From positions 1 through 32,000 of the forward strand of contig JAFQCH010000046.1 in assembly GCA_017416485.1 (NCBI GenBank): DNA of 32,000 nucleotides, given 5' to 3'. This stretch comes from Clostridia bacterium. GTDB lineage: Bacteria; Bacillota; Clostridia; Oscillospirales; Acutalibacteraceae. Under the pieces are notes generated by a model. That model saw nothing but the letters and a program-made list of their open reading frames with translations. It did not search any database and was not told the origin of the DNA. A program made the translations under genes and the position numbers. Shown here piece by piece: positions 1 to 29,244 of this stretch (within the stretch, counting starts at the first letter, position 1; each line of letters begins with the position of its first letter).

Positions 1-1
1 A

Positions 2-2857
2 GATCTTGCGTTCGCTCATTGCTATAGCCTGACGAGTATAGAGATTCCGGCAAGTTTAAAAGATGCCGATGATTATATTTACAACTATGAAGGTCCTTTT
101 TATAAATGCAGCAGTTTGAAAAATGTAACAATTGAAAACGGCACAACCAAGATAGTAGATCATTTGTTTGCAGGATGCACCGGATTAGAAAGCATTGAGA
201 TTCCGGATACCGTAACCGAAATCGATGAGCATGCCTTTAATGGTTGCAGTAATTTATCATCAGTAAAACTTTCAGAATCATTAGTGTTTTTAGGAGCCAT
301 GTCTTTTGCAGAGTGCACTTCTTTGACCAGTATAGAAATACCGGTAAGTTTAAAAAAAGCCGATTATTATATTTACAACTATGAAGGACCTTTCTATAAT
401 TGCAGCAGTTTGAAAACCGCAACAATTGAAGACGGTACTACCAAGATATTAGATCATTTGTTTGCAGGATGTACCGGGCTTAAGAATATTGAAATGCCCG
501 GTACTATAAAAGAAATTGGAAATTGGGCTTTTTATTATACCGGATTTGACAATATCATAATACCTGATAATATAACAAGAATAGGTGAGCAGGCATTTGC
601 ACATTGCAGCAATCTTACGAATGTCACATTTTCGGATACTCTGCTTGAAATATTACGAGGTGCCTTTGCCTATACAGGCTTGGAATCGGTTGTTCTGCCA
701 AACAGTATAACAAGTATGGGCACAAGCGTATTTGAAGGATGTTCCTCTTTAAAAACTGCGGTCCTTAACAACACCAGACAGAATGTAATGGAATACACAT
801 TCAGCGGCTGTACTGCTCTTGAAAGCATAGAGCTGCCGGCAACGGTAACCACCATTCAGAATTACGCTTTTAACAATTGTACATCCCTGAAAGAAGTGAA
901 ACTCAATGACGGTTTGACAACAATTCAAAGCAACGCGTTTAAAAATTGCGATGCACTGACAACGATCGCCATCCCCGACAGTGTAACTTCTGTCGGAGCA
1001 TCCGCATTTTATGATTGCGATGCCCTGACAACGATTGCTATCCCCGATAGCGTAAGTTCTTTCGGCTCATCCGTCTTCTATGATTGCGATACGCTTACTT
1101 CTGTCACGCTCGGAACAGGCATGACTTCACTGCCTTCGAGCACCTTTGAGCATTGCGATCTTCTTGCGGAAATTGTGTTGCCTTACAGAGTGGCATCTAT
1201 CGGTGGAAATGCGTTTAAAGATTGTGTTAAGTTCACTACAATCACAATCCCCCGTGCAACAACCAAAATTGATTCAACTGCGTTCAGCTATCCTACAAGA
1301 CTTACCATCAATGGTGTTGCCGGTACGTATGCCGAAACCTTTGCCAATGAAGTCGGTGCAACCTTTGTAAACAAAGAAGTGAATGCAACAGCTGTTACGC
1401 TCAACAAAACAGAAGTAACGCTTAATAAAGGTCAGTCTGACAAACTTGTTATGACCGTGACTCCGTCTGACTTTACCGACGAAGTATCTTGGAAATCAAG
1501 CGACACAAATGTTGCAACCATTGCGGAAGACGGAACTCTTGTTGCAAAGAATGTGGGCACCGCCACAATCAAAGTAACAGTAGGGAATGTTAGTGCATCC
1601 TGCAAAGTAACGGTTGTGCAGCCTGTGACAAGTGTAAATATTGATAAGAGCAGTGTAACTTTGCAGGCCCTTGAAACTTATGCACTGAAACTTACTGTAA
1701 ATCCTTCCAACGCTGCAAATAAAACTGTACAGTGGACTTCTTCAGCAAGCGATATTGCATCTATTGATGAAAACGGTCTGGTGACTGCACATAAGAAAGG
1801 CGAGGCAACAATCACGGCAGAAGCACAAGACGGAAGCGGAAAGTATGATACTTGTAAAATTGTTGTTACAAATAACGGTGTTATTGCAGACAGCGTTTCA
1901 GAACTTGAAAGCCCTCATAATTATCCTGTAAATTGTTCAGATTTCTGGCAGTATACATTGGAAGGTGCAGATGGTATTTCTGTTACATTCGACACAAAAA
2001 CGACCATAGAGGATGGCTTTGATTACCTTTATATTTATGACGGTAAGGGTAATGAGGTCGGAAAGTACACAGGCACAGAACTTGCAGGTAAAACAATTGT
2101 AATCAATGATAATACGGTCAGAATTCAGCTTGCTTCTGATGATTCCGGAACTGAATGGGGATTTAAAGTAACTGAAGTAAAAACTCTTTCCGAGCATACG
2201 CATGATTACGTATCAGTTATCACAAAGCAGGCAACCTGTACTGAATCCGGGGTAAAAACGTTTACTTGCAGTTGCTCTGATTTGTATACTGAAGAAATTC
2301 CCGTTCTCGGTCACAATTTCAGTACAGAATTTACTGTTGATAAAGAAGCCACTGCAACAGAAGATGGCTCCAAGTCAAAACATTGTCTGAGAGACGGATG
2401 TGCCGAAAGAAGTGAAGTTACTGTAATACCAAAACTTGAAAGTTCTTTTGTAGACAGTGAAAATGCTAAACTTGATAATGACGTAGTTGTAATGACTGCG
2501 GGGATTACCGTAGAAAATCTTCTTTCTCAGGCAGATAGTGGTGCCGTTATAAAGGACAGTAAGGGAAATACGATTACATCTGACAAACTTCCCGGTACAG
2601 GTATGGTTCTTGTTCTTCCTGACGGCAACGAACATACAATTGTTGTTTTTGGTGATGTTGAAGGCGACGGTATTGTTTCCGCATCAGACGCAAGACTTGC
2701 CCTTCGTGCTTCTGTTGGTCTGGAAGATTATGCAGAAGACTCAGCACAGTATAAAGCTGCAAAAGTAAGCACCGGTGATACACTTTCAGCAGCGGATGCA
2801 AGATTGATTCTCAGAGCTTCTGTCGGACTTGATGACCCGAAAGACTGGATGAAGTAA
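2..2857 (+). CDS. Secreted BspA-type leucine-rich-repeat surface protein with Big_2 Ig-like domains, a CUB-like domain, a Cys-rich module and a C-terminal dockerin. It is 5'-partial: the frame is open to the window edge.
   Basis: The frame of ORF 116..2857 stays open back to nt 2 (DLAFAHCYSLTSIEIPASLKDADDYIYNYEGPFYKC...). There are repeated ~23-aa LRR units (xxAFxxCxxLxxIxIP). Two Big_2-like segments are present (VTLNKTEVTLNKGQSDKL..., VNIDKSSVTLQALETYAL...). ESPHNYPVNC...YLYIYDG is CUB-like. The C-terminal dockerin duplicate is GDVEGDGIVSASDARLALRASVGL / DTLSAADARLILRASVGL. The stop is TAA. Confidence 0.85.
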   Translation, partial: DLAFAHCYSLTSIEIPASLKDADDYIYNYEGPFYKCSSLKNVTIENGTTKIVDHLFAGCTGLESIEIPDTVTEIDEHAFNGCSNLSSVKLSESLVFLGAMSFAECTSLTSIEIPVSLKKADYYIYNYEGPFYNCSSLKTATIEDGTTKILDHLFAGCTGLKNIEMPGTIKEIGNWAFYYTGFDNIIIPDNITRIGEQAFAHCSNLTNVTFSDTLLEILRGAFAYTGLESVVLPNSITSMGTSVFEGCSSLKTAVLNNTRQNVMEYTFSGCTALESIELPATVTTIQNYAFNNCTSLKEVKLNDGLTTIQSNAFKNCDALTTIAIPDSVTSVGASAFYDCDALTTIAIPDSVSSFGSSVFYDCDTLTSVTLGTGMTSLPSSTFEHCDLLAEIVLPYRVASIGGNAFKDCVKFTTITIPRATTKIDSTAFSYPTRLTINGVAGTYAETFANEVGATFVNKEVNATAVTLNKTEVTLNKGQSDKLVMTVTPSDFTDEVSWKSSDTNVATIAEDGTLVAKNVGTATIKVTVGNVSASCKVTVVQPVTSVNIDKSSVTLQALETYALKLTVNPSNAANKTVQWTSSASDIASIDENGLVTAHKKGEATITAEAQDGSGKYDTCKIVVTNNGVIADSVSELESPHNYPVNCSDFWQYTLEGADGISVTFDTKTTIEDGFDYLYIYDGKGNEVGKYTGTELAGKTIVINDNTVRIQLASDDSGTEWGFKVTEVKTLSEHTHDYVSVITKQATCTESGVKTFTCSCSDLYTEEIPVLGHNFSTEFTVDKEATATEDGSKSKHCLRDGCAERSEVTVIPKLESSFVDSENAKLDNDVVVMTAGITVENLLSQADSGAVIKDSKGNTITSDKLPGTGMVLVLPDGNEHTIVVFGDVEGDGIVSASDARLALRASVGLEDYAEDSAQYKAAKVSTGDTLSAADARLILRASVGLDDPKDWMK
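32..490 (+). repeat. Intragenic duplication of a ~294-bp (98-aa) LRR module
   Basis: ccggcaagtttaaaagatgccgatgattatatttacaactatgaaggtcc... at 47 recurs at 341 as ccggtaagtttaaaaaaagccgattattatatttacaactatgaaggacc.... The protein segments IPASLKDADDYIYNYEGPFYKCSSLKNVTIENGTTKIVDHLFAGCTGL and IPVSLKKADYYIYNYEGPFYNCSSLKTATIEDGTTKILDHLFAGCTGL match closely. Confidence 0.7.
947..1084 (+). repeat. Tandem 69-bp (one 23-aa LRR unit) duplication inside the LRR gene
   Basis: Units 947-1015 and 1016-1084 both start tgcgatgc(a/c)ctgacaacgat(c/t)gc(c/t)atccccga. They encode CDALTTIAIPDSVTSVGASAFYD and CDALTTIAIPDSVSSFGSSVFYD. Confidence 0.8.
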
Positions 2858-2876
2858 AAACAACACAAATCAATTT

Positions 2877-2905
2877 AAGGGAACGGCTCAAAAGTCGTTC
2901 CCTTT
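2877..2905 (+). terminator. Rho-independent terminator of the LRR/dockerin gene
   Basis: Hairpin aagggaacg / cgttccctt followed by T residues, 20 nt after the TAA stop. Confidence 0.7.
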
Positions 2906-3025
2906 GCCATTTCTCCAAGAGAACAAGCAAAATCATCAGCCAAAAGCAAGCCACCGTATCTTTCGACACGGTGGCTCACTTGTTTCGCGACAATCGAAGC
3001 CTGCGCTTCTTTTTGGGAATACTTA

Positions 3026-3613
3026 TTATTTTTCCAGCAGCTCAAGATACTTGTATATCGTTGTTCTGCTCATATCACACACTCTGGCAAACTCTGACAC
3101 GTTTAAGTTGCCGTTTTTGTATGAGGGGTAGTGTCTCATGAATATTGCCGGGATATTGTCTGCGGTTGTTTGCGGTCGCCCGATTTTCGCCCCCTTTGCT
3201 CTGGCATTTGCCATCCCAGACCGCACACGTTCTCTGATGATTCTCAACTCCAATTCTGCAAACACACCCGACAGCTGAATGAATGCATTTGTCATCGGGT
3301 CAATCTGACCTCCTGAACAGTCAACCGTTATGCTGCCGACAATCACCAGCCGCAAGCACTTTGCTTTTACTGTTTCTATGATTTCGCAGAGCTGCTTTGT
3401 GCTTCTGGCAAGTCTGGACACTTCGAGAGTGTATATGCTGTCTCCCGGTTGCGCTTGTTCCAGAAGCAGGGAGAGCTGCTCTTTGATTGCGGAATCGCCG
3501 TGTTCGTATTCAAGAAAAACTTCTTCGGCTCCGGCTGTTTTTAATTCACGGACTTGTCTCTCAATATCCTGCTTGCTCTCATTTGTCGAGCATCGGGCAT
3601 AACCGTAATTCAT
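3026..3613 (-). CDS. Small serine recombinase (resolvase/invertase family) with a C-terminal HTH
   Basis: The N-terminus MNYGYARCSTNESKQDIERQ matches the resolvase catalytic motif (Y-x-R-x-S-T..Q). The length is 195 aa. The C-terminal HTH is NVSEFARVCDMSRTTIYKYL. The RBS aaaggagaag lies upstream of ATG 3613. The stop is TAA. Confidence 0.85.
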   Translation of the reverse strand: MNYGYARCSTNESKQDIERQVRELKTAGAEEVFLEYEHGDSAIKEQLSLLLEQAQPGDSIYTLEVSRLARSTKQLCEIIETVKAKCLRLVIVGSITVDCSGGQIDPMTNAFIQLSGVFAELELRIIRERVRSGMANARAKGAKIGRPQTTADNIPAIFMRHYPSYKNGNLNVSEFARVCDMSRTTIYKYLELLEK

Positions 3614-3680
3614 GTTTTCTTCTCCTTTTGGTGGGTTTGCGGAGAGGGCAAGGGCTGTTTCCTTGCCCTCTCTGTTGGTT

Positions 3681-3956
3681 TTAAGCGATTGTGAAGCGAC
3701 GGCTGGCGATCTGCTTGGTGTATTCTTTGTAGAGTTCGGGCATCACCTTTTTGAAGCTCGTGGTGTCGAATCTCTGCGTGAGAACCGATGTCCAGCGGAC
3801 GATGTAAGTGCCGGCTTCCATTTCTTCGGTGTCTCTGCTGAGCATTTCAGCTTTGATTTCGTCTCTGAGTGCTTCGGCTTCAGCCTTTGCTTCTTCGATG
3901 AGGTTTTCAAGTTCCTTGAGAGCTTCGATTTTTGTTGTGATTTCGATTGTTGACAT
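3681..3956 (-). CDS. Hypothetical 91-aa protein with an N-terminal coiled coil
   Basis: The ORF has RBS aaaggaga 7 nt before ATG 3956. It is co-oriented with the recombinase and directly upstream of it. The N-terminus is heptad-rich (KIEALKELENLIEEAKAEAEALRDEIKAE). No family was recognised. Confidence 0.6.
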   Translation of the reverse strand: MSTIEITTKIEALKELENLIEEAKAEAEALRDEIKAEMLSRDTEEMEAGTYIVRWTSVLTQRFDTTSFKKVMPELYKEYTKQIASRRFTIA

Positions 3957-4004
3957 TGTTGTTATCTCCTTTGATTGTGTGTTTGTTGTTTACCAACTGT
4001 CTTT

Positions 4005-4033
4005 ATTATACTACGAAAATCGTAGTTTGTCAA
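4005..4033 (-). promoter_or_regulatory. Consensus sigma-A promoter with a palindromic operator in the spacer, driving the 91-aa/recombinase operon
   Basis: Minus strand: TTGACA (4033-4028), a 17-nt spacer, then TATAAT (4010-4005). The spacer contains the palindrome ctacgaaaatcgtag (4011-4025). Related TACG-N5-CGTA-like copies occur at about 4035-4047 and about 4053-4066. Confidence 0.7.
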
Positions 4034-4086
4034 TACGTTTTTCGTAAAAACTTTACGATTTTCGAAAAAAATTTTCGATTTCCGTA

Positions 4087-4115
4087 TTGATTTATTACGG
4101 AATGCGTGATACAAT
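4087..4115 (+). promoter_or_regulatory. Sigma-A promoter of the XRE-family gene, divergent from the recombinase operon promoter
   Basis: TTGATT (4087-4092), a 17-nt spacer, then TACAAT (4110-4115). The RBS aaggaaggtga precedes ATG 4142. Confidence 0.6.
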
Positions 4116-4141
4116 CATCCAAAAGGAAGGTGATATAAGTA

Positions 4142-4363
4142 ATGATAAAATTCAAAGTCAAAGTTATGCTTGCGTTGCGTGGGATGACACAAAAAGAATT
4201 AGCAGAAAAAACAGGCATCAGACCGCCGACTGTGTCCGCAATCTGCACAGGTGCGGTTAAGCATTTTCCGATTGATGCACTTGACAAGATTTGCACGGTT
4301 CTTGATTGTCAACCTGCGGACATTATGGAATACGTTCCTGACGATGCTAAGGGTGTTCAATAA
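4142..4363 (+). CDS. XRE/Cro-CI family helix-turn-helix transcriptional regulator (73 aa)
   Basis: MLALRGMTQKELAEKTGIRPPTVSAICTG is a typical HTH_3 motif. The protein is small, has a good RBS and ends in TAA. Confidence 0.85.
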   Translation: MIKFKVKVMLALRGMTQKELAEKTGIRPPTVSAICTGAVKHFPIDALDKICTVLDCQPADIMEYVPDDAKGVQ

Positions 4364-4632
4364 AACATTTGATATTCTGAACGGTTTTTTGGGGCTTCCA
4401 GAAGCACAAAATCTGACGAAAAATGCGGTGTTTTTGTTCAGGAAATGTGAATCATCTTTTTGCGGACACCGGGGGACGTATTCAGGGATGAAAAAAATAT
4501 TTTTCATTTTTTCTCCTTGGTGGTGGCTCTTGCTCTTTTGAAATGTTCGTTTCATTCAGACTGACGGTTTTTCCGACCGTGCACAGAAGATGAAATCTCT
4601 GTCCAACAGACGACAGAGAAGGAATACAAACG

Positions 4633-4689
4633 AAAAAAAACGGCGATTGCGGCTCGAATTTTATCGAAAGCCGCAACCGCCGTTTTTTT
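4633..4689. terminator. Bidirectional rho-independent terminator
   Basis: A long hairpin acggcgattgcggct...agccgcaaccgccgt (one mismatch) is flanked by an A-run on its 5' side and a T-run on its 3' side. Confidence 0.6.
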
Positions 4690-4818
4690 ATTTGAATGAT
4701 CCTAATATGTCATCCAATGCCTAATCAATCAGTGTTTTCATGCTTTTATGTATTATGTTGAATAACTCTGTTTCAAGAACAGACTTTTTCTTTTTTTTAT
4801 TTTTCTTGTTTTTCTGGC

Positions 4819-5001
4819 TCATTTTTTCTGCTCCTTTACAATGATGTGAATGCTGTCTTCTTCATCAACATCAAGAATATCTTCCGATATTTTTTTTCTT
4901 TGTTCAATCCAGTTTGTCTGCGCAGTTGCATTATTGATCTGATACCAGAATTTGTCAGGTAATGTGCCGTTATTTCTGGATTGTATTGTTGTTTTATCCA
5001 A
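4819..5001 (-). CDS. Hypothetical 60-aa protein with a TTG start
   Basis: A strong RBS AAGGAGG lies 7 nt upstream of TTG 5001. It is the last gene of the minus-strand operon. The stop is TGA. No family was recognised. Confidence 0.4.
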   Translation of the reverse strand: MDKTTIQSRNNGTLPDKFWYQINNATAQTNWIEQRKKISEDILDVDEEDSIHIIVKEQKK

Positions 5002-5089
5002 AGTAGAATCCTCCTTTTTCTTTCAGAATGTCATCAAGTGTTATTGTCAGAGCTGTTTTGTTTACATCGAATTTTCGCCAATTACTTTC

Positions 5090-5440
5090 CTATGGAATCT
5101 GATAATTCAAAGGAGGTTTGTGTTTTCTTATATAATAGCCTTCTCTTTCTCCGATTTCTTCATCAATTTCAGTTTGCTTTTTGGATTTGGCTCTGTAAAG
5201 CACATCAAATTTGATTTTCATATTTCTGCTTTTGGCTTCGGCAAGAACGGAATACTTATTATTTTCGGGCGTTGATGTGCTTACCCAGTGTTCTGCCATA
5301 CGATAGAGAATGTCTCTGCTTTTGCCTACATAAACAATGATATCATTGATGGATATTGAATATATCCCGGCGCACTAAAACTTTGTGCTCCATTTCTATG
5401 TTAAATACTTTCTATATAAGTTGTCAACGTATTTGCTCAT
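5090..5440 (-). CDS. GIY-YIG domain nuclease-like gene with two internal in-frame TAG codons. It is either recoded/suppressor-dependent or a pseudogene.
   Basis: ATG 5440 is preceded by AAGGAG (5448-5453, 7-nt spacing). The translation is MSKYVDNLYRKYLT*KWSTKF*CAGIYSISINDIIVYVGKSRDILYRMAEHW.... The GIY..YVGKS..R motifs lie downstream of TAGs at 5396-5398 and 5375-5377. There is no ATG/GTG/TTG between the second TAG and the motifs, and the ORF track only reports 5090..5299. The nominal stop is also TAG (5090-5092). If that TAG is read through, the frame continues 31 codons to TAA 4994-4996. Confidence 0.55.
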
Positions 5441-5451
5441 ATCTTTTCTCC

Positions 5452-6003
5452 TTAAAATACAAATCCATCTTGTGTTTCACAAAAATCTATTACCTTTTTT
5501 GTCTCTTGGATTTTTATAATATCAGAATTATCTTTTTTTATGTTTTCTATTATATTATTATGCGTATTTTCAATATCTCCCGATGGGGGATATTCAGAAT
5601 GCATAGGGGAATCTTCAATTTTCGAAGATGGGGTATCTTCAAGCTGCCCCTGCGCACTTTTGTAAATCGCATCATAATCAACAATAATTTCGCCGGCTCG
5701 CTCTTTTGTGCCGGGATTGTGAATTAACCAACCTTTTTCAACCAGAGCTTTACGCGCCTTTTTGTATGTTTCTTCTGACATACCGCATCTGTCCATTACT
5801 GTTTTTTCGGCGACAGCAAAACTGCCGTTGGTTGCATTTCCGGTGAAAAATAATATCAATTTGAGCTATGCTCCGCATTTTCCCGGAATGCCATTGAAAA
5901 TGATTGATTCCAGCTCATGTGTGCGGATTGCTTTTCCCCATTTTTCATTTCTGTTTTTTTCTCCATGTGATTTCAGCAAAGGTGCTTGATTAAAATCGGA
6001 CAT
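5452..6003 (-). CDS. Winged-helix/HTH protein (Rep/DnaD-like replication or regulatory protein) with one in-frame TAG
   Basis: ATG 6003 has RBS GGAGA 6 nt upstream. The translation is MSDFNQAPLLKSHGEKNRNEKWGKAIRTHELESIIFNGIPGKCGA*LKLILFFTGNATNGSFAVAEKTVMDRCGMSEETYKKARKALVEKGWLI.... The TAG at 5866-5868 is in frame and sits inside the wHTH-like segment. The stop TAA 5452-5454 lies 11 nt before the next gene's ATG. The ORF track reports only the part from TTG 5859. Confidence 0.55.
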
Positions 6004-6068
6004 ATCATGTCTCCATTCTATTATAAAATTCAGGATTATAATATTTATTATTTTTGTCCTGTAATTAT

Positions 6069-6097
6069 ATTATAACAAAAATTTTTATATAAATCAA
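6069..6097 (-). promoter_or_regulatory. Sigma-A promoter of the TAG-containing operon
   Basis: Minus strand: TTGATT (6097-6092), a 17-nt spacer ending in TGT, then TATAAT (6074-6069). Confidence 0.6.
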
Positions 6098-6118
6098 AGC
6101 AGATCGATGAGCGCAAAC

Positions 6119-6149
6119 GAAAAACCGATATTCTGGACGAATATCGGTT
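6119..6149 (-). terminator. Terminator after the 157-aa gene
   Basis: The hairpin aaccgatattc/gaatatcggtt (6123-6149) is followed on the minus strand by TTTTCGTTTG. Confidence 0.5.
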
Positions 6150-6184
6150 TGACTTGTGTTGGTATATTTCATTGTCTTTTCCTT

Positions 6185-6658
6185 TTATGCTGTTTCGAGC
6201 AGTTTTGCAGTGGTTTCTTCTTCTAATACAGAAGTTGCAGATATGACAACCGGCTGTATGTTGAGATAGAAAAGGGGATTCTTTCTGAAATCGGGGAACT
6301 GTTTCAAAAACCATTTACTGACAACTGCATACCGGCTGTGTTGCGGAAGTGAGCCGTTCTCTTTTAAAAACTTAAATTCAGCAAGATAGTTTTCGTGATT
6401 TGGCAATCCAACAATGAAGCCTTCCATGCGTTCATATGTCAGGTTCTTGAACTGATTGCAGTTGAACGTTTCGCCACTCTTGGTTGTGTATTTCTTGGGT
6501 GATCGGTGGGTCTTTTTTGCAATGGTCAGAGAAGGAAAGTCAGTGGTTAATTTCAATACAAGTTCATATTCTGCACTGTTAGGGTCGTTCATATTTTCAG
6601 CAAAGTCAGCGGTGATTGTGAGAGTTTTGCTAATAATGTCAAAATTATACTTTTCCAT
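6185..6658 (-). CDS. Hypothetical 157-aa protein, a paralogue of the upstream 159-aa protein
   Basis: The ORF has ATG 6658 and a TAA stop. It shares ...Y/F-x-x-ME-x-Y/F-I..L.N... and KWFL-x-x-F motifs with ORF 6717..7196. Confidence 0.6.
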   Translation of the reverse strand: MEKYNFDIISKTLTITADFAENMNDPNSAEYELVLKLTTDFPSLTIAKKTHRSPKKYTTKSGETFNCNQFKNLTYERMEGFIVGLPNHENYLAEFKFLKENGSLPQHSRYAVVSKWFLKQFPDFRKNPLFYLNIQPVVISATSVLEEETTAKLLETA

Positions 6659-6716
6659 TTCTTTTTCATCCTTTCAGAATTTCAGAGTAAATCATTTGAT
6701 GTTTTTTATCCGTTTC

Positions 6717-7196
6717 TTAAGATGCAGATTTCAGCACAGGCGGATTGGTGTCAGCATTCTTTTTAGCCTGGCTCATGAGATGCATTGAAATGCGTTCTTT
6801 CGCATCGTCCATGTTGAATCCGTTTTCCTCAGATCCAAACTTTTCAAGGAACCACTTTTTTGTAAACGGGAATTCTTTGATTTCAGCATTTACTGCTACC
6901 TTTCTGACTTCTTTATATTCACCATACACGATGTCAGCATTATCGAGAGTTTTGATGTAATCTTCCATAAACTTGAAATCAAGACCGCTATAAGTTCTCT
7001 TGGCTTGTTTACTCTTGATTTTCTGTTCTTTGACAACAAGTTCAAATGTGGGATGTGCTGACATTTTGCTTGTAAGTTCTTCATAAGCATCACCGAATCC
7101 CTTGTTTGCTTTGTTGAAACTTGCCTTGGTGCCTGAGATTGTTTTTGCGAAGAAGTCGAGGGTGAAGTAGTTCTTGTTGTTTGTTGTGTTTTTCAT
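6717..7196 (-). CDS. Hypothetical 159-aa protein, a paralogue of ORF 6185..6658
   Basis: ATG 7196 (MKNTTNNKNYF...) with an upstream aaaggaaa RBS is preferred over the track's TTG at 7226. The stop is TAA. No family was recognised. Confidence 0.6.
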   Translation of the reverse strand: MKNTTNNKNYFTLDFFAKTISGTKASFNKANKGFGDAYEELTSKMSAHPTFELVVKEQKIKSKQAKRTYSGLDFKFMEDYIKTLDNADIVYGEYKEVRKVAVNAEIKEFPFTKKWFLEKFGSEENGFNMDDAKERISMHLMSQAKKNADTNPPVLKSAS

Positions 7197-7371
7197 AAGT
7201 AATTTCCTTTCTGCGGTAGGTCGCAACCCATTATTTTTTTTCGAGGAGGTTCAGTGCTGTGTTCCTCTCTCGTTGTGTCTATAGTATACAAAACAACCTA
7301 TCCAATATCAGTGGATAGGTTTTGGATTTGATTGTAATTTTTTTAAGTTTTTTTGTGAACAGAAATGATTC

Positions 7372-7450
7372 AAAGATGATGATATTTGTGTAAAGATGAT
7401 TGATGATATCAAAAGATGATCTGAATTGAAAAAAGTTTCATAAAGATGTG
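7372..7450 (+). repeat. Iteron-like direct repeats AAAGATGAT with 20-bp phasing, adjacent to an AT-rich tract
   Basis: aaagatgat occurs at 7372, 7392 and 7412 (exactly 20 bp apart), with a variant aaagatgtg at 7442. GATGATAT motifs are embedded at 7378 and 7402. A T/A-rich stretch lies at 7331-7360. Confidence 0.6.
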
Positions 7451-7632
7451 TATAATAAAAGGTAAAGAACTTGTATCCTGAACAAACGATATGATAAAAT
7501 CATATCAGCAAGCAGGCAAGAGGTCTTGAAAAGTAAATAAAAAACAGCCTGCAAATACAGGCTGTCGGAAAAGAGCATAAATCCGGGCATTGTGGCAGAT
7601 GATTGCATCTTTAAGCCGTGGGGCACCACGGC

Positions 7633-7682
7633 TGTGCTTCACACGCAGGAGGTCTGCAGTTCGAGTCTGCACGTCCCCACCA
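7633..7682 (+). tRNA. Orphan tRNA 3' half: part of the anticodon arm, variable loop, T-arm, acceptor 3' strand and encoded CCA. It is a pseudo-tRNA or an att-site remnant.
   Basis: The T-arm is tgcag-ttcgagt-ctgca (7655-7671). The acceptor 3' strand is cgtcccc (7672-7678), followed by discriminator A and CCA (7680-7682). The variable loop is aggtc. The required 5' acceptor strand ggggacg and a canonical D-arm are absent upstream. Confidence 0.6.
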
Positions 7683-7687
7683 AAAAA

Positions 7688-7717
7688 ACAGACAAGCCCT
7701 TGCTTGTCTGTTTTTTT
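7688..7717 (+). terminator. Rho-independent terminator directly after the tRNA-like 3' end
   Basis: The hairpin acagacaagc-cctt-gcttgtctgt is followed by T7. Confidence 0.75.
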
Positions 7718-7719
7718 AT

Positions 7720-7933
7720 CCATTGCGAAAGCAATGGCATATCATCAACGATAGCGCAGCTATCGTTGTATCTCATCAGTCCGTCAGGACTGTATATCAC
7801 CACGCTTTAGCGTGTATCAAAAGAGCTTTCGCAATGATGATATGCAAAACGAAAGTTTTGATGATATGCAACTTCTGCGAAGTTGATGATATGCAATTCC
7901 TGCAGAATTGACGATATACAATGCTTACGCATT
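7720..7933 (+). repeat. Array of 8 copies of a 10-nt motif (4x GCATATCATC-like, then 4x GATGATATGC-like in the opposite orientation) alternating with 8 sequence-unrelated perfect hairpins
   Basis: The left-half (L) motif copies are at 7737 gcatatcatc, 7768 gtatctcatc, 7792 gtatatcacc and 7814 gtatcaaaag. The right-half (R) motif copies, in the opposite orientation, are at 7836, 7860 and 7885 (gatgatatgc) and 7910 (gacgatatac), with 24-25-bp spacing. The hairpins are ccattgc-gaaa-gcaatgg, aacgatagc-gca-gctatcgtt, cagtcc-gtca-ggactg, cacgc-ttta-gcgtg, aaaac-gaaa-gtttt, aacttc-tgc-gaagtt, aattc-ctgca-gaatt and aatgc-ttac-gcatt. Confidence 0.8.
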
Positions 7934-7972: not shown

Positions 7973-7995
7973 GATGAAGAATTTTTTCAATTTAC

Positions 7996-8024
7996 TTGAA
8001 GTTGCGGTTTCTGTGTGCTATAGT
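7996..8024 (+). promoter_or_regulatory. Sigma-A promoter of the second LRR gene
   Basis: TTGAAG (7996-8001), a 17-nt spacer, then TATAGT (8019-8024). Confidence 0.55.
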
Positions 8025-8026
8025 GT

Positions 8027-8212
8027 AATTACCACACTATAATCTAATATTGTTTTTTTCACAAGACAAAACCGTGTTTTTACCTTTTGGTAAAAGCACT
8101 AACTTTGTTATTTCGGTTTTCGTTTTGTGAGACAAGAAATTATAGTGTGGTAGCTAATCGAAGTTAGTGTTTTTCAGTGTGTGCACAACTTCGGTTTGCA
8201 CACACTTTTTTT
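8027..8212 (+). promoter_or_regulatory. Structured ~190-nt 5' leader: a long nested imperfect hairpin followed by an intrinsic terminator with a possible antiterminator
   Basis: The nested pairings are accacactataat (8031-8043) with attatagtgtggt (8140-8152), cacaagacaaaaccg with cggttttcgttttgtg, and gtgtttttacc-tttt-ggtaaaagcac. The terminator agtgtgtgca...tgcacacact plus T6 spans 8176-8212, just before RBS ggagga. The segment cgaagtt (8159-8165) is complementary to aacttcg in the terminator loop. Confidence 0.55.
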
Positions 8213-8230
8213 ATTTTGGAGGACAAAACT

Positions 8231-10339
8231 ATGAAAAAACGAAGCTGCAAAATCTTGTCTGTCATTTTATGTTTGTTGTTATGCCTGTCGGTTGTGTCGC
8301 TGTCGGAAAGTGCTGTCGTAAAGGCAGAGATTATTTATCCTGATCATTATATTCCTTACCATAGCGAATATGGTACTATTTATTATGTAGTTGAGAACAA
8401 CGAGGCTTGCATCGTTGCTTGTAATGAACATGTAACCGACCTTGTTATTCCGTCGGAAATAGACGGTTATCCTGTAACAGGGATTGCTGAATATGCATTC
8501 ATGAATAACTCTATTAAAACTGTTATTATTCCGGATAGTATTACTTATATAGGAGCTGGAGCATTCTATGACTGTAACCTTGAAAGTTTAAATATCCCCG
8601 ATAGTGTTGCTTTCATAGGTGAAGGCGCATTTGCCGATTGTAAAAACCTTGCAAGTGTAAACATTCCGGCTTCAATAGAGACTATCGCAGGAGGATTATT
8701 TGGTGGCTGTGATAATCTTAAAACTGTAAACATCTCTGAAGGTATTCTTTCAATAGAAATGGGTGTTTTTGAAGGATGCAAAAGTCTTACAAGTATTACA
8801 CTGCCGGAATCGTTGCAATATATTGGTGAGGGTGCATTTTGTCTTACAGGCTTAACCTGTCTGGAAATTCCTGCAAATGTAACTTATGTCGGTAACATGT
8901 TTATGGATGTATTTCTAGAAGAATTTATTGTTTCAGAGGAAAACGAGTATTATTGTACTGATGAAAACGGAGTACTGTTTAATAAAGACAAAACAATGTT
9001 GATTGCATGTCCCGGAAGTTTGGATGTTACCTCATATACAATACCGGATGGGGTTATAACAATTGCACCCTATGCTTTTGCTTGCAATTTCAGATTGAAA
9101 GAAATTACAGTTTCTGAAGGTGTAAAAGAAATTGGTGAATGTGCTTTTGCGAATATGGTTTTTCTTGAAAAAATCAATCTTGCATCTACTGTTGAGCGTA
9201 TAGACTTCTGGGCATTTTATTATGACGTTGCGCTCAAAGAGATTGTAATTCCCGAATCAGTCAAATATGTTAATGAATCTTTTGCGCCGCTTTTATCGCT
9301 TGAGAAAGCAGTCATATACAGCAGAGATCTTGATTTGACCGGCAGTTATTTTGGTTGCACTTTAAACCCCGGGAACACGGCAGAGGAGAAAGCAGCTTTT
9401 TGTGCTGCATACCAAAAAAGAATCGTAGCTCAATATACATTCGACGATGAAAAATGGCAGGAAGCGGACAAAGAACTGGAATTATTGAACGAAAAATTCG
9501 GAGATAGAGAAGACCCCTTTGCCTATACCTGCCCCATTTATTGTTATCAGAACTCTTCCGCAGAAGCCTATGCAAAAGAAAACAATATAGAATACAGATA
9601 TATCCGCTGTGAAATTCATACAGAGGAGCTTGTTCCCGGAACTGCTGCCACCTGCACGCAAACAGGTCTGACGGAAGGTAAAAAATGCTCTGTATGCAGT
9701 CTGGTTCTTCTTGAACAGACCGAAATTCCCGTTGAAGACCACGAAATGCAGTCTTGGGTGAATGACTACGACGCAGGCACGGCAACAAGAAACTGCAAAA
9801 ACTGTGCATATACGGAAACGGTTGCACTTGATGTGCAGGATAACAACGATGTTGAGATCATCGCCCCCGAAAATCCCGACCTTGATTTTGACATTGCCGG
9901 CATAGATAAAAACAGTGACTCCTTTGTGCTTGTGCAGAATACTGTCAAAGAAAACACGGAAGATAAATATGAGGTTCTTAAAATGTTTGACATCACACTC
10001 AAAAACAAAGACGGTGTGCATGTGCAACCCGACGGAACCGTAAAAGTCAAACTTCCGCTTGATTTTGCAAGTGAGGGCAATTATAAGGTCTATCGTGTGA
10101 ATGATGACGGAAGTCTTACCGATATGCAAGCTGTCAGAGAAGGAAGCCACATGGTTTTTGAAACGGATCACTTCAGCATTTATGTGATTGTCGGTGATGA
10201 TGTTGCCGTCCAAGAACCGCCTGTTGAAGAAAAACCGCCGCAGGACAGTGAAGAAAACATCTTTGAAACTTTTGCAAATTTCATTCTTACGCTTTTGAAA
10301 TGGATTGCAAGACTTATTGGTATTTTTGAGAAACTATAA
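8231..10339 (+). CDS. Secreted BspA-type leucine-rich-repeat surface protein with a Cys-rich module and a C-terminal amphipathic hydrophobic tail
   Basis: ATG 8231 with RBS GGAGGA and the signal peptide MKKRSCKILSVILCLLLCLSVVSLSESAVVKA is preferred over the track's GTG 8177, which lies inside the leader terminator. LRR units of the form AFxxCxxLxxIxIP are present. CTQTGLTEGKKCSVCS is a Cys module like that in the first LRR protein. The tail is IFETFANFILTLLKWIARLIGIFEKL. The stop is TAA. Confidence 0.85.
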   Translation: MKKRSCKILSVILCLLLCLSVVSLSESAVVKAEIIYPDHYIPYHSEYGTIYYVVENNEACIVACNEHVTDLVIPSEIDGYPVTGIAEYAFMNNSIKTVIIPDSITYIGAGAFYDCNLESLNIPDSVAFIGEGAFADCKNLASVNIPASIETIAGGLFGGCDNLKTVNISEGILSIEMGVFEGCKSLTSITLPESLQYIGEGAFCLTGLTCLEIPANVTYVGNMFMDVFLEEFIVSEENEYYCTDENGVLFNKDKTMLIACPGSLDVTSYTIPDGVITIAPYAFACNFRLKEITVSEGVKEIGECAFANMVFLEKINLASTVERIDFWAFYYDVALKEIVIPESVKYVNESFAPLLSLEKAVIYSRDLDLTGSYFGCTLNPGNTAEEKAAFCAAYQKRIVAQYTFDDEKWQEADKELELLNEKFGDREDPFAYTCPIYCYQNSSAEAYAKENNIEYRYIRCEIHTEELVPGTAATCTQTGLTEGKKCSVCSLVLLEQTEIPVEDHEMQSWVNDYDAGTATRNCKNCAYTETVALDVQDNNDVEIIAPENPDLDFDIAGIDKNSDSFVLVQNTVKENTEDKYEVLKMFDITLKNKDGVHVQPDGTVKVKLPLDFASEGNYKVYRVNDDGSLTDMQAVREGSHMVFETDHFSIYVIVGDDVAVQEPPVEEKPPQDSEENIFETFANFILTLLKWIARLIGIFEKL

Positions 10340-15325: not shown

Positions 15326-18280
15326 ATGGCATTGCAATTTCACCGTCAATTGGAAAATATTCATGTGAACACCATGGCACCGCGTGCATATTTCATTCCC
15401 TTTAAAACGCACGAATGCAAAAACGCAGACCGTGAAAAATCAGAGCTCTTTTATTTGCTTAACGGTGAGTGGGATTTCTGCTTTATTCCCGATGTGGAAA
15501 GAGTCGGCGTTGAAAAAGAAGGTTTTGCCGAATATGTAGTCTGCCCCGATACCGTCACCGTGCCCAAATGCTGGCAGATGTACACCGACCGCAACTATGA
15601 TCCCCCGCAGTATATCAATCAGGACTATCCGTTCCCCGTGGATCCGCCGCATCTGCCCGATGCCATTCCCGGCGGTTTTTACAGAAGAAAATTCACCTTT
15701 ACCAAAAAAGAAAACAAACTGTATTGGCTGAATTTTGAAGGCGTTGCACCTTGTTTTTATCTGTGGATCAATGACAAATTTGTCGGCTTCAGCAGTGTCA
15801 GCCACTCAACAAGCGAATTTGATGTAACCGAGTATCTTGTTGACGGCGCAAACAAGATTGAGCTGCTTGTTGTCAAATATTGTGTCGGTACTTATCTTGA
15901 AGACCAGGACTTTTTCCGTCTTTCGGGCATTTTCAGGGATGTCTATGTGCTTGAACGCGACGAAAAATGTATTCGTGATATTTTTGTGAAACCCGTTGTC
16001 AGCGAAGATCTGAAGACGGCAGAAATTTTTGTGGATGTTGATTTTACGGCAGATACCACGCTTGCATGGAGTCTGCGCGATCCCGACGGCGCCCCCGTCG
16101 GACAGCACGGTATTGAAACGGGCAATTTCAAAGTCACTCTCGAAAATCCCGTTCTCTGGAATCCCGAACAACCGAAGCTGTATGAATTTTTCATCACCTG
16201 CGGCAATGAGTGCATTTCTGTGCCCATTGCAGTGCGCCGTTTTGAAATCAAGAATAAAACCGTGCTTCTCAACGGTGTCAAGGTCAAGGCAAAGGGTGTC
16301 AACCGTCACGATAACCACCCCGAAACGGGGTATGCCGTTACGGTGGATGAAATGCTTCGTGATCTGTATCTGATGAAACGTGCCAATGTCAACACCATCC
16401 GCACCTCGCATTATCCGAATGATCCCCGTTTTATGGAAATGTGCGACCGTCTGGGCTTTATGATTGTGGATGAAGCCGACCTTGAAACCCACGGCATGGG
16501 CTATAATTACGGCGACTGGTATTGGGATTACTGGGCATTCCTTTGTGATGATCCCGCATGGAAAGATATCTGTGTTGACCGTGCCGTTCGTCTGTTTGAG
16601 CGTGACAAAAACCGCGGCTGTGTTGTGCTGTGGTCACTCGGTAATGAATCGGGTTGCGGTGAAAACCACCGCCACATGGCTTCTTACATCCGTTCCCGTG
16701 ATGACCGTGCACTGATTCACTATGAAAACGCACATCTTGAATATCAGGACAGACTGAATAAAGACTTTACCGACATTTCCGATGTCGAAAGCCGTATGTA
16801 TGCCACGATTGAATATCTCGAAGAATATCTCAACAACCCCGAAAACACAAAACCTTTCTTCTATTGCGAATATGTCGATTCCATGAGCACGGGTGATGTT
16901 TACAAACACTGGGATGGTTTTGAAGACAAAGATAATTACTTCGGCGCCTGCATCTGGGAATTTTCCGATCATGCCGTCAACATCGGCACAAAGGAAAATC
17001 CGAAATACCGCTATGGCGGAGACTGGGGTGAAGAACCCAATGATTTCGTCTGCTGTCTTGACGGTCTTGTGTATCCCGACCGTTCTTTGCGCCCCGGTTA
17101 TTATGACATGAAAAAGGTTTATGAACCTTTTGCTGTTTCCTATGAGAACGGAAATGTCAGCATCAAAAATAAGAAATTTTATACTTCGAGTGCTGATTTC
17201 TATGCAGTGTGGAATATTCAGCAGGACGGCAAACAGATTCTTGACGGCAGAATCGATGACCTTTGCATCGATGCACAGCAGACCAAAGAATATGTTTTGT
17301 TTGCAGATACCACTTTCACGGGCAATACCACGCTCAATCTCTCTTTCCGTCAGAAAAATGCCAACGAATGGGCAGAAGCCGATTACGAAGTTGCTTTTTC
17401 GCAGTTCGTTTTGGCCGAAACTGTTATGCAGGCAGAAAATACGGTTGAAAATGAAATCAAAGTCGAAGAAAAGGCTTTGGAATATGTTGTTTGTGTTGGG
17501 GAAGTGCAGTACACTGTTGACCGTCTGACAGGATTACTTACCGATCTTTACAAAAACGGCAACAAACTTTTGACCGAACCCTTGGCAATTGCTGTATACC
17601 GTCCATGGCGTTATAACACACGCGGTGAGGACGAAACCTGGAATCGTGCCCGTTACGACAGACTGCGCCATAAGTGCTATAACACAATCTTAAGAACGGA
17701 CGAAAACGGCAATGTGGTTATTGAATCCGACGTGTCGCTTGCCGCTGCCGCCATGCCGCCTGCCATGCATATCAAGCTGACTTATACCGTCAAAAAAGAC
17801 GGTTCGCTGACCGTTTGCAGTGATGTCAAAGTTACCCACAATGCCCCCGCTTTGCCGCAGTTCGGTTTTGTATGGAAACTGCCCGCAGGCTTTGAAAATG
17901 CCGAATACTACGGCTATGGACCGCACGAATCTTATGCAGAGCGTTGGCAGAGCACACAATTGGGATTGTATGAAACCACCGTCACCGATCTGTATGAGCC
18001 TTATATTGCACCGCAGGAATCCTCGGCACGTCTCGGCACAAAATATGCTTGTCTTGCAGATGAAAACGGCAACCGTGTCCGATTCTATGCAGAAGCACAG
18101 ACCGGATTCTCCTTTAAAGCCCTGCACTATACAAACGAAATGCTTCGCAATACAAAGCATCACGATGAACTCGTGCCGCTTGACGAAACGGTCGTTTCTA
18201 CACTGTACCGCATCGGCTATCCGTCCGTAAAGGTCGATGAAAAGGAATTCTCCTTTGGCGTTCAGGTTTTGCCTTACTGA
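15326..18280 (+). CDS. GH2 beta-galactosidase
   Basis: The protein is 984 aa. GH2 signatures include KGVNRHDNHPETG, IRTSHYPNDPRF, VLWSLGNESG and FFYCEYVDSMSTG. The start lies 4 nt after the preceding stop. The stop is TGA. Confidence 0.9.
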   Translation: MALQFHRQLENIHVNTMAPRAYFIPFKTHECKNADREKSELFYLLNGEWDFCFIPDVERVGVEKEGFAEYVVCPDTVTVPKCWQMYTDRNYDPPQYINQDYPFPVDPPHLPDAIPGGFYRRKFTFTKKENKLYWLNFEGVAPCFYLWINDKFVGFSSVSHSTSEFDVTEYLVDGANKIELLVVKYCVGTYLEDQDFFRLSGIFRDVYVLERDEKCIRDIFVKPVVSEDLKTAEIFVDVDFTADTTLAWSLRDPDGAPVGQHGIETGNFKVTLENPVLWNPEQPKLYEFFITCGNECISVPIAVRRFEIKNKTVLLNGVKVKAKGVNRHDNHPETGYAVTVDEMLRDLYLMKRANVNTIRTSHYPNDPRFMEMCDRLGFMIVDEADLETHGMGYNYGDWYWDYWAFLCDDPAWKDICVDRAVRLFERDKNRGCVVLWSLGNESGCGENHRHMASYIRSRDDRALIHYENAHLEYQDRLNKDFTDISDVESRMYATIEYLEEYLNNPENTKPFFYCEYVDSMSTGDVYKHWDGFEDKDNYFGACIWEFSDHAVNIGTKENPKYRYGGDWGEEPNDFVCCLDGLVYPDRSLRPGYYDMKKVYEPFAVSYENGNVSIKNKKFYTSSADFYAVWNIQQDGKQILDGRIDDLCIDAQQTKEYVLFADTTFTGNTTLNLSFRQKNANEWAEADYEVAFSQFVLAETVMQAENTVENEIKVEEKALEYVVCVGEVQYTVDRLTGLLTDLYKNGNKLLTEPLAIAVYRPWRYNTRGEDETWNRARYDRLRHKCYNTILRTDENGNVVIESDVSLAAAAMPPAMHIKLTYTVKKDGSLTVCSDVKVTHNAPALPQFGFVWKLPAGFENAEYYGYGPHESYAERWQSTQLGLYETTVTDLYEPYIAPQESSARLGTKYACLADENGNRVRFYAEAQTGFSFKALHYTNEMLRNTKHHDELVPLDETVVSTLYRIGYPSVKVDEKEFSFGVQVLPY

Positions 18281-20017: not shown

Positions 20018-20051
20018 GATTTCCTCCGAGACTTGATTTTATGTGCTTATA

Positions 20052-20081
20052 ATTATAGCCTAAAATAGATTAAAATGTCAA
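20052..20081 (-). promoter_or_regulatory. Sigma-A promoter of ligase paralogue 1
   Basis: Minus strand: TTGACA (20081-20076), an 18-nt spacer, then TATAAT (20057-20052). A hairpin terminator of paralogue 2 lies at about 20135-20169. Confidence 0.55.
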
Positions 20082-20178
20082 TAAATGATTAAAAAAATTT
20101 AAGTATGTATATATTTAAATTCTGTTATTTCTCAAAGAAAGACATCGGCAGGCTGCAGATGTCTTTCTTGTTATATTA

Positions 20179-21870: not shown

Positions 21871-21915
21871 TCTGTTTTCTCCTTAATTATTTTCTCGTTC
21901 CATAAAATTCAATTT

Positions 21916-21944
21916 ATTATATTGCAAAAAAGAAATATTGTCAA
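21916..21944 (-). promoter_or_regulatory. Sigma-A promoter of ligase paralogue 2
   Basis: Minus strand: TTGACA (21944-21939), a 17-nt spacer, then TATAAT (21921-21916). The terminator of paralogue 3 lies at about 21975-22009. Confidence 0.6.
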
Positions 21945-22020
21945 CAAAAAACAACAATATTCGATATTTTTTAGAAAAAATTTGCGGGAAAGTTTTTACT
22001 CTCCCGCAACGATGTGTCTG

Positions 22021-29114: not shown

Positions 29115-29127
29115 AAATAATCCTCCT

Positions 29128-29240
29128 GAAAAAACAAAAAAACGTCCGGGCGCAGAAAAATAATCCTGCCCAGGCGTTCGGCATTTCACAAGTTATCCGT
29201 TCCCTCGCAGTGCTCTGCGTTACGCCGGTAGCGGATACAA
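29128..29240 (-). promoter_or_regulatory. ZTP riboswitch (pfl RNA motif) with a terminator expression platform in the pflB leader
   Basis: All elements are on the minus strand. P1 pairs UAUCCG (29237-29232) with CGGAUA (29199-29194). It encloses CUACCGGCG-UAAC-[GCAG-AGCA-CUGC]-GAGGGAA. After a short linker comes the signature GCCGAACGCCUGGGCA (CGCCUGGGCA at 29176-29167). That segment can alternatively pair with CUGCGCCCGGACG (29155-29143), which is followed by U7, forming the terminator. The location upstream of pfl is the classic context for this motif. Confidence 0.75.
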
Positions 29241-29244
29241 TGTA

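Follow-up and report, generated by a model that had tools for sequence, protein, structure and literature searches.

An operon in which TAG very probably encodes glutamine within a small integrative element of Oscillospirales

By reading the minus strand of a 32,000-nucleotide (nt) stretch of a Clostridia bacterium contig (JAFQCH010000046.1, positions 1 to 32,000; Oscillospirales; hereafter the window, meaning the whole stretch) together with the list of its open reading frames (ORFs), we identified an operon that carries five in-frame TAG codons and no in-frame TAA or TGA codon and no frameshift. The operon consists of four genes, namely a winged helix-turn-helix (wHTH) gene, a GIY-YIG gene, orf60 and the Lys-rich orfK, and lies within an integrative element at tRNA-Val, where the five TAGs fall in the 434 codons of the operon compared with none in the 3,060 codons of the eight other genes of the element (Fisher p = 2.9e-5). 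From the comparison with related genes, TAG in this operon is very probably a conserved sense codon that reads as glutamine (Gln), and two codes thus appear to be used within one small element, code 15 in the operon and the standard code in the remaining genes. The explanation of the whole that we somewhat favor is a code-15 operon in a standard-code tRNA-Val element, which would be translated only upon the switch in decoding of a recoded phage. A first-pass annotation, made from the window sequence alone, had proposed an amber-recoded module in a standard-code host instead of decay, and this core proposal is strongly supported by the comparative data, because the interrupting stops are TAG only, the TAGs align to Gln, their sites are deeply conserved, the integrase, recombinase and regulator genes are TAG-free, and the homologues are full-length. 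The absence of TAA, TGA and frameshifts was also described correctly, while the count of TAGs rises from four to five with that in orfK, the two genes recognized at the time are joined by two others, and the 'small island' turned out to be part of a 12,434-bp element that fills positions 1-7682 and extends past the window start.

The coordinates, ribosome-binding sites (RBSs) and stops given in the first-pass annotation for the wHTH and GIY-YIG genes were all reproduced, and both its promoter (6097-6069) and its terminator hairpin after 4692 are present (Table 1). The wHTH protein matched PHROG 186 and other DnaD-like and replication-initiator families (E = 1e-10), O-like initiators among them, and had a weak HTH_36 match in Pfam. 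Inside its gene sit three iteron-like repeats, the number and spacing of which are kept in the related loci L001 and L006, with two copies found in L002 and L007, and which represent a candidate origin judging from the motif. The GIY-YIG start lies eleven bases past the wHTH TAA, and its TAGs are at 5396-5398, 5375-5377 and 5090-5092. As had been noted before, no in-frame ATG, GTG or TTG is available between the second of these and the GIY motif, and the public annotation resorts to an ATA codon as the start of a 91-aa fragment (P0048, 'GIY-YIG nuclease family protein'). The window copy of orf60 is free of TAG, and its relatives contain TAG, in one case at a codon that is Gln in the window copy. 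For orfK, the in-frame TAG of the tiny ORF previously placed at 4745-4692 is real, but the homologues in L001 and L002 set the start at ATG 4822 and the length at 43 codons.

The TAGs are genuine. The window is part of the 65.6-kb ENA contig L155 (0 mismatches). Two contigs from other samples, L154 and L156, match the whole 1,451-bp operon at 100% identity and hold all five TAGs; in L157, a third contig from another sample that starts past the wHTH TAG, the 1,184 bp covered are likewise 100% identical and include the remaining four. The source samples of the element are ERZ28018789, ERZ28654157, ERZ28655125 and ERZ27256787. Because the same TAGs recur in these three independent assemblies, assembly error is ruled out. 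Searching with the 148-residue read-through GIY-YIG protein found 85 clusters, mostly uninterrupted proteins of 144-148 aa that span the whole query, including the 31 codons beyond the 'nominal' TAG stop. In the closest homologue, P0001 (68% identity), each of the three TAG sites is Gln; over the whole operon, the closest sense-coded relative has Gln at four of the five sites and Met at one, in orfK. The AlphaFold model of P0001 has a pLDDT of 93.6, with the N-terminal helices and C-terminal extension confidently packed, so the parts of the nuclease that termination at TAG would remove are predicted to fold confidently in this protein.

Membership of the GIY-YIG superfamily was evident from a PF01541 match above the cut-off, the GIY...YxGxS...R...H...E...N motifs and the invariant R47, H51, E100 and N112, and the best fold matches of the P0001 model by Foldseek were UvrC (1yd5/1ycz), EndoII (2wsh) and I-TevI (1mk0). 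The proteins therefore share their motifs, Pfam family and predicted fold with the UvrC N-terminal domain, T4 EndoII and the I-TevI catalytic domain, but they differ from those enzymes in being single-domain proteins of 138-151 aa, with N-terminal helices and a C-terminal extension of their own and no recognizable DNA-binding domain.

TAG usage across the family was evaluated in two sets of loci: 81 non-redundant loci from species-representative genomes, queried by tblastn with the window proteins, and a second, independent set of 80 metagenome loci. The 81 genome loci are all of Oscillospirales-type Clostridia, with Oscillibacter valericigenes An860 and Pseudoflavonifractor phocaeensis An901 among the cultured strains; Pseudoflavonifractor sp. 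HCP28S3_F10 is another cultured carrier. In the genome set, the GIY-YIG genes contained 108 TAG, 1 TAA and 1 TGA in 10,810 aligned codons, the Rep200 and wHTH initiators 31 and 9 TAG with 1 TAA in 9,310 and 1,706 codons, and cc85, a small coiled-coil gene upstream, 12 TAG and 0 other stops in 1,038 codons. Neither TAG nor any other in-frame stop was present in the tyrosine integrases (25,027 codons), the serine recombinases (9,115 codons), or the HTH regulators, SHOCT cargo, unkA, unkB and p91 of the same loci. The metagenome loci gave 126 TAG, 0 TAA and 0 TGA for the GIY-YIG genes, and 0 TAG in 13,327 integrase codons. Among the unique GIY-YIG genes, 76 of 89 have one to five TAGs, their read-through lengths are 138-151 codons, and the true ends of the 89 are TAA in 60 and TGA in 29. 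TAG-only interruption, first noticed in the window, thus recurs with conserved sites over about 160 loci, in which the GIY-YIG genes hold about 230 in-frame TAGs vs two TAA/TGA and no frameshifts. TAG also works as an ordinary terminator in these elements, standing exactly at the homologous C-terminus in 5 of 11 HTH61 regulators and ending 9 of 82 integrase and 5 of 44 serine recombinase genes, but no coiled-coil or initiator gene has it as its end.

That TAG stands for Gln was assessed at the aligned sites. In a joint alignment, the nearest sense-coded neighbor has Gln at 81 of 147 GIY-YIG TAG sites (background Gln 3.6%), and at 23 of 28 initiator TAG sites (background about 4%). The near-invariant Gln of the NYQIP motif (Q114) is written CAA in 39 genes, CAG in 36 and TAG in 11, and TAG makes up 149 of the 543 Gln-type codons of the GIY-YIG genes. 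At position 50, beside the catalytic His, TAG is used in 40 genes compared with 19 with CAG or CAA, and it is kept at pairwise identities down to 44%, while the flanking codons (Arg, Ala, His, Val, Gly) vary freely at synonymous sites. Within the window subfamily, the window initiator shares the position of its TAG with eight relatives (57-68% identity), while a ninth, L001, has CAG (Gln) there. From these alignments, the TAG sites appear to be kept by selection.

These data bear directly on the possibility that a prophage remnant is decaying here, its genes reduced to pseudogenes by ordinary CAG-to-TAG nonsense mutations. The C-to-T change at CAG is a likely route to TAG and would likewise produce Gln in relatives, and the public annotation does handle the genes as fragments. 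A CAG-to-TAG mutation alone, however, predicts neither the absence of TAA, nor the positional conservation, nor the preserved frames, which argues against pseudogenes: CAA-to-TAA changes, expected to be at least as common, are absent, the ratio of about 230 to two with no frameshifts holds over the roughly 160 loci, the sites are conserved to 44% identity with ORF lengths preserved, and the att repeats and integrases are intact and the neighboring genes of the same elements TAG-free. Decay is contradicted by the data and we regard it as very improbable.

Reassignment of TAG throughout the host, or its reading as pyrrolysine, is contradicted just as firmly and is the least credible of the alternatives. 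Few genes of the window end in TAG, which would fit such a reading, and the first-pass annotation had pointed out that no other coding sequence of the window does so; this is true (TAA 11, TGA 8, TAG 0) but uninformative, since only 7.8% of host stops flanking related elements (25/322) are TAG, against which the 0 of 16-19 in the window is unremarkable, and an avoidance or reassignment of TAG by the host was ruled out on these numbers. Because host genes next to the elements use TAG as a stop and none is interrupted by it, the hosts use the standard code, and the same elements also terminate genes with TAG. In addition, the TAGs are aligned with Gln and not with Lys or pyrrolysine contexts, and no pyl genes were seen in any locus, a scan that covered the loci and not whole genomes.

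The element in which the operon lies was seen whole in the sister scaffold L154, which differs from the window by one mismatch in 13.6 kb. It is bounded by perfect 48-bp direct repeats and is ordered as att repeat, unkB and unkA, TAG operon, XRE regulator, p91 and serine recombinase, leucine-rich repeat (LRR) cargo, WYL regulator, tyrosine integrase and tRNA-Val, the last three lying beyond the window start. A terminator at 6150-6122, 3′ of unkA, precedes the operon promoter, and the XRE gene is convergent with the TAG operon and divergent from the p91-resolvase pair. The relatives of the window serine recombinase have 0 stops in 4,592 codons. Neither structural genes (terminase, portal, capsid, tail) nor lysis genes are present in the full L154 element, a DNA similarity search of phage and plasmid collections gave no match, and unkB had no match in Pfam, PHROG or PADLOC.

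Small elements of this type are widespread. In 14 further loci, the GIY-YIG gene lies within elements of 4.4-7.5 kb that are bounded by 45-60 bp repeats of a tRNA 3′ half, the target being tRNA-Pro, -Val, -Arg, -Ala or -Lys, and that contain 0 structural or lysis genes. Their layout comprises cargo and a regulator running leftward, the coiled-coil gene, initiator and GIY-YIG gene rightward, then the integrase and the tRNA. The intact att repeats, the integrases and the lack of structural genes indicate discrete mobile elements and not random prophage debris. That the genome loci might be full recoded prophages was considered and rejected, because the long multi-TAG ORFs that suggested it are low-complexity antisense artefacts. 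In L001, a related 9-kb element interrupts a GGGtGRT-family gene (7058-7201 and 16249-17247; 47 + 332 residues) and is not at a tRNA, which indicates that the window subfamily uses more than one kind of target site. A separate feature of the 5-kb relatives is a conserved, roughly 450-nt non-coding stretch before the TAG operon (L031 8700-9160; likewise L024, L028, L061, L067, L070, L076 and L077), in which a (TA)n tract is followed by TTGTCAAG, a GACGGTGACGG box and a TTGATT-N17-TATAAT promoter, together with a small leftward gene. Aligned in search of an RNA gene, it showed the promoter, the (TA)n tract and the conserved boxes and nothing tRNA-like, and it could be an origin or operator region.

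A link to recoded phages, raised in the first-pass annotation, was borne out by IMG/VR, where only ten contigs encode a relative of the nuclease. Three of the ten, L085, L087 and L090 (22-27 kb contigs), are thoroughly TAG-recoded phages, with 4-14 TAGs in each of the large terminase, portal and tape-measure genes and 0 in the integrase, and with the initiator-like and GIY-YIG genes directly upstream of the small terminase, so that the nuclease homologue sits between initiator and small terminase. Two others, L086 and L088, are phage fragments in or near the standard code in which the GIY-YIG gene also precedes the small and large terminase, indicating that its position beside the packaging module is conserved independently of the code. 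Code-15 as well as standard-code phages, with genome sizes of about 18-24 kb, belong to the clade defined by the terminase. As a side observation, standard-code members of this clade carry a tRNA-Ile(UAU) (L112 3208-3283, L113 8359-8434, L124 7747-7823), and the TAG-recoded members analyzed carry no tRNA except for a tRNA-Thr at the att site.

Recoded phages of this kind have been described by Borges et al. as the Topaz clade, in work the published version of which reportedly appeared in Nat Microbiol in 2022. Topaz phages are TAG-recoded, have genomes of 22 ± 3 kb and a TAG-free integrase, and reside as prophages at tRNA-Thr in Oscillospiraceae (10.1101/2021.08.26.457843). Code-15 phages and prophages are thus already known (10.1101/2021.08.26.457843; PMC9523058), and for crAss-like phages peptides with Gln at TAG have been approached by metaproteomics (PMC9523058). 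L085, L087 and L090 fit the Topaz clade, and the Rep and GIY-YIG module is present in Topaz-like phages of about 22-24 kb. The small elements share with Topaz phages the reading of TAG as Gln in a standard-code Firmicutes host, the confinement of TAG to a subset of genes, a strictly TAG-free integrase, integration at tRNA genes and the homologous module. They differ in size (4-12 kb), in lacking terminase, portal, capsid, tail and lysis genes, in being unable to form particles alone, and in what is recoded, chiefly structural and lysis genes in Topaz phages but the initiator, nuclease and small proteins here. From sequence comparison, the small elements look like a Topaz-type phage reduced to integrase, switch and early operon, and their differences in integrase type, att site and cargo would have arisen later.

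How the operon would be used can be proposed as follows. While release factor 1 (RF1) of the host is active, the operon would yield only short N-terminal fragments, so that it is translation that would keep the replication and nuclease functions locked. Leaky read-through in competition with RF1 would not be expected to give useful amounts of protein from genes with up to five TAGs each. A recoded phage, co-resident or infecting, would switch the decoding of TAG to Gln and allow the operon to be translated. Replication of the element, and probably its spread as well, would follow at the expense of that phage. The element would thus resemble a satellite for which the genetic code acts as the gate and the code change of the helper as the signal for induction. 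We give an even chance to the recoded phage as the supplier of the switch, and hold tentatively, at a little less than that, that the 4-12 kb elements of gut Oscillospirales are phage satellites or phage-sensing islands with a code-locked operon induced in this way; both the supplier of decoding and the gain to the element are what we infer.

Several observations weigh against this explanation. The amber suppressor that the first-pass annotation had envisaged was not found: ARAGORN, at default and relaxed settings, detected no tRNA(CUA) in the window, in complete elements or in any of 238 loci (2.55 Mb), and none was present in the covered parts (up to 86%) of the related recoded phage genomes. 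Rfam likewise detected no suppressor tRNA in the phage loci, one element and the window, and no credible match came from searching IMG/VR with a pattern for a Gln-like anticodon arm that contains CUA. Pfam and PHROG scans of the element recognized no packaging or capsid-redirecting gene (TerS, capsid, scaffold), no circular, excised contig occurred among the 80 metagenome loci, and the orfK homologues of L001 and L002 are uninterrupted, with ATG (Met) at the TAG codon of orfK. The missing tRNA(CUA) is not an argument against recoding as such, because just 35-40% of recoded phages carry suppressor tRNAs (10.1101/2021.08.26.457843). By sequence, well over a hundred related small elements appear to use TAG as Gln without a means of their own to read it, and the trans-acting reader could be a phage tRNA encoded elsewhere, an RF1 antagonist or a host factor.

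The same recoding could also operate without any helper phage, with the switch supplied by the host or by the element. In that case the element would be an integrative replicon that acts autonomously, and the code would serve as its internal timer. The candidates would be an inducible suppressor tRNA or down-regulation of RF1 in the host, the unkA and unkB proteins, or an unrecognized RNA. That the related recoded phages also lack tRNA(CUA) in their covered parts suggests that a non-phage or non-tRNA route may exist in the hosts; unkB and unkA constitute a TAG-free transcription unit of their own immediately 5′ of the TAG operon, and the 5-kb relatives have the conserved non-coding stretch before theirs. 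In these 5-kb relatives, however, unkA and unkB are missing and hardly any coding capacity is left to spare, host genes terminate with TAG, and Rfam and ARAGORN find nothing in the elements. We consider this alternative, including its candidates, unlikely, though it deserves real weight.

A third use of the same gate would be defence, in which the TAG-gated GIY-YIG nuclease, made upon the code switch of a recoded phage, cuts phage or host DNA as an abortive-infection sensor. The gating logic is identical to that of the helper-phage explanation, the nuclease is the most TAG-laden gene, and some relatives carry cargo of the defence-island type (Mrr-type nuclease, WYL regulators). On the other hand, the phages themselves carry homologues of the nuclease and the initiator in the same order, the initiator with its iterons points to replication of the element, and the PADLOC scan matched only the WYL regulator, leaving GIY-YIG, Rep, unkA and unkB without a match. 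This makes a defence device improbable.

Table 1. Features of the TAG operon and of the surrounding element in the window.
Feature	Position	Strand	Description
Sigma-70-like promoter of the TAG operon	6069..6097	-	TTGATT, 17 nt, TG-TATAAT; from a consensus scan, consensus match only
wHTH replication-initiator-like gene	5452..6003	-	183 codons read through; ATG 6003, GGAGA RBS, TAG 5866-5868, TAA 5452-5454
Three 11-bp iteron-like direct repeats, GAWKATWCCCC	5585..5640	-	starts 5640, 5616 and 5595; spacing 24 and 21 nt; from a motif scan
GIY-YIG nuclease gene	4994..5440	-	148 codons read through; ATG 5440, AAGGAG RBS, TAA 4994-4996; Pfam PF01541
orf60	4819..5001	-	60 codons; TTG start, AAAGGAGG RBS, no TAG; start overlaps the GIY-YIG TAA 4994-4996
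orfK, Lys-rich, last operon gene	4692..4822	-	43 codons; ATG 4822, TAG 4721-4723
Operon terminator region	4609..4714	-	GC-rich hairpin, then T run; inverted repeat I1; hairpin after 4692
48-bp att repeat, element end	7635..7682	+	displaced 3′ half of tRNA-Val(CAC); second perfect copy in the intact tRNA-Val(CAC), 12,434 bp away in L154
unkB	6717..7196	-	159 aa; no TAG; homologues in 15-16 loci with 0 in-frame stops
unkA	6185..6658	-	157 aa; no TAG; 0 stops in 2,851 aligned codons
XRE/Cro-type HTH regulator (HTH_26)	4142..4363	+	Pfam E = 5e-22; PHROG repressor families; no TAG; 0 stops in relatives
p91, phage-related protein	3681..3956	-	PHROG 6244 (E = 2e-16); no TAG; 0 in-frame stops in 3,002 codons of relatives
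Small serine recombinase, resolvase/invertase type	3026..3613	-	195 aa; Pfam Resolvase E = 7e-28; PHROG 125 DNA invertase; no TAG
BspA-type LRR surface protein gene, 3′ part, cargo	1..2857	+	1,738 aa in L154 (10757-15973); Pfam LRR_5, Big_2, CUB; 0 in-frame TAG

Around the ends of the element, a tRNA-like fragment at 7610-7682 was initially taken as a class I tRNA with a UCA anticodon, and this was rejected, as it is the 3′ half of tRNA-Val(CAC) that forms the att repeat. A perfect 16-bp hairpin (7682-7717) adjoins this fragment, and a repeat cluster at 7730-7907, just outside att, contains two tandem copies of TTGATGATATGCAA, with a 25-nt period, and an inverted one 109-132 nt upstream. The contig of the window breaks inside the LRR cargo gene, probably owing to the repeats of this gene, and a second LRR gene (8177-10339) lies directly outside the att repeat. 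The 246 nt at 7979-8223, 5′ of this outer LRR gene, are 75% identical to L002 13187-13422, which is located 5′ of a WYL gene inside a related element and on the opposite side of the element; the stretch contains a perfect 14-bp inverted repeat (8030-8043 / 8139-8152) and may be a shared regulatory leader. Further from the element, three tandem paralogous genes of AMP-binding, acyl-CoA-synthetase-like proteins (562-563 residues each) occupy 18326-23709 on the minus strand, and the related element of L001 also has an AMP-binding gene nearby, a hint of a shared neighborhood. A ZMP/ZTP riboswitch (29161-29242, minus strand; Rfam RF01750, 50.8 bits, above the gathering score) is positioned directly 5′ of a gene for a 767-residue pyruvate-formate-lyase-like glycyl-radical enzyme (26886-29189).

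Phage satellites known so far include PICI, cfPICI, PLE, P4-like elements and the PICMI of Vibrio, which are about 5-6 kb. Like these, the elements described here are small and integrative, encode an integrase and a repressor-type regulator, are bounded by att sites, lack structural genes and have genes in common with phages of the same hosts. They also carry a putative initiator of their own, with a candidate origin suggested by its repeats. Unlike known satellites, they have no small-terminase, capsid-size or other packaging-hijack gene that was recognized here. Their dependence on a helper is what we infer. That the PLE nuclease NixI is a GIY-YIG enzyme was considered and not upheld, as the paper on it does not use this term. 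Another parallel is offered by laboratory amber mutants of phages on suppressor hosts, the classical system of conditional-lethal genetics, in which, as proposed here, the expression of essential functions hinges on the suppression of UAG in the cell. The ambers of these elements, in contrast, are natural, numerous, conserved in position and confined to one operon, and the permissive state would come from another mobile element. In the literature searched, no satellite gated by stop-codon reassignment has been reported, and in full texts no recoded satellites, mini-elements or other non-viral mobile elements.

TAG-to-Gln recoding in phages, and in a few complete prophages, is thought to time the expression of late genes. 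The same device is now found in tiny elements that have neither particle genes nor a suppressor of their own and that are common in cultured and uncultured gut Oscillospirales. As standard annotation splits their genes or labels them truncated, the whole family has been invisible in genome records. If a recoded phage supplies the decoding, one mobile element would depend on another by way of the genetic code, a relationship of which the searched literature contains no report. If instead the host or the element supplies it, a novel non-tRNA or inducible reading of UAG would exist in standard-code Firmicutes, which would bear on the suppressor-less recoded phages too. Several of the carriers are cultured strains, which makes the question testable at the bench.

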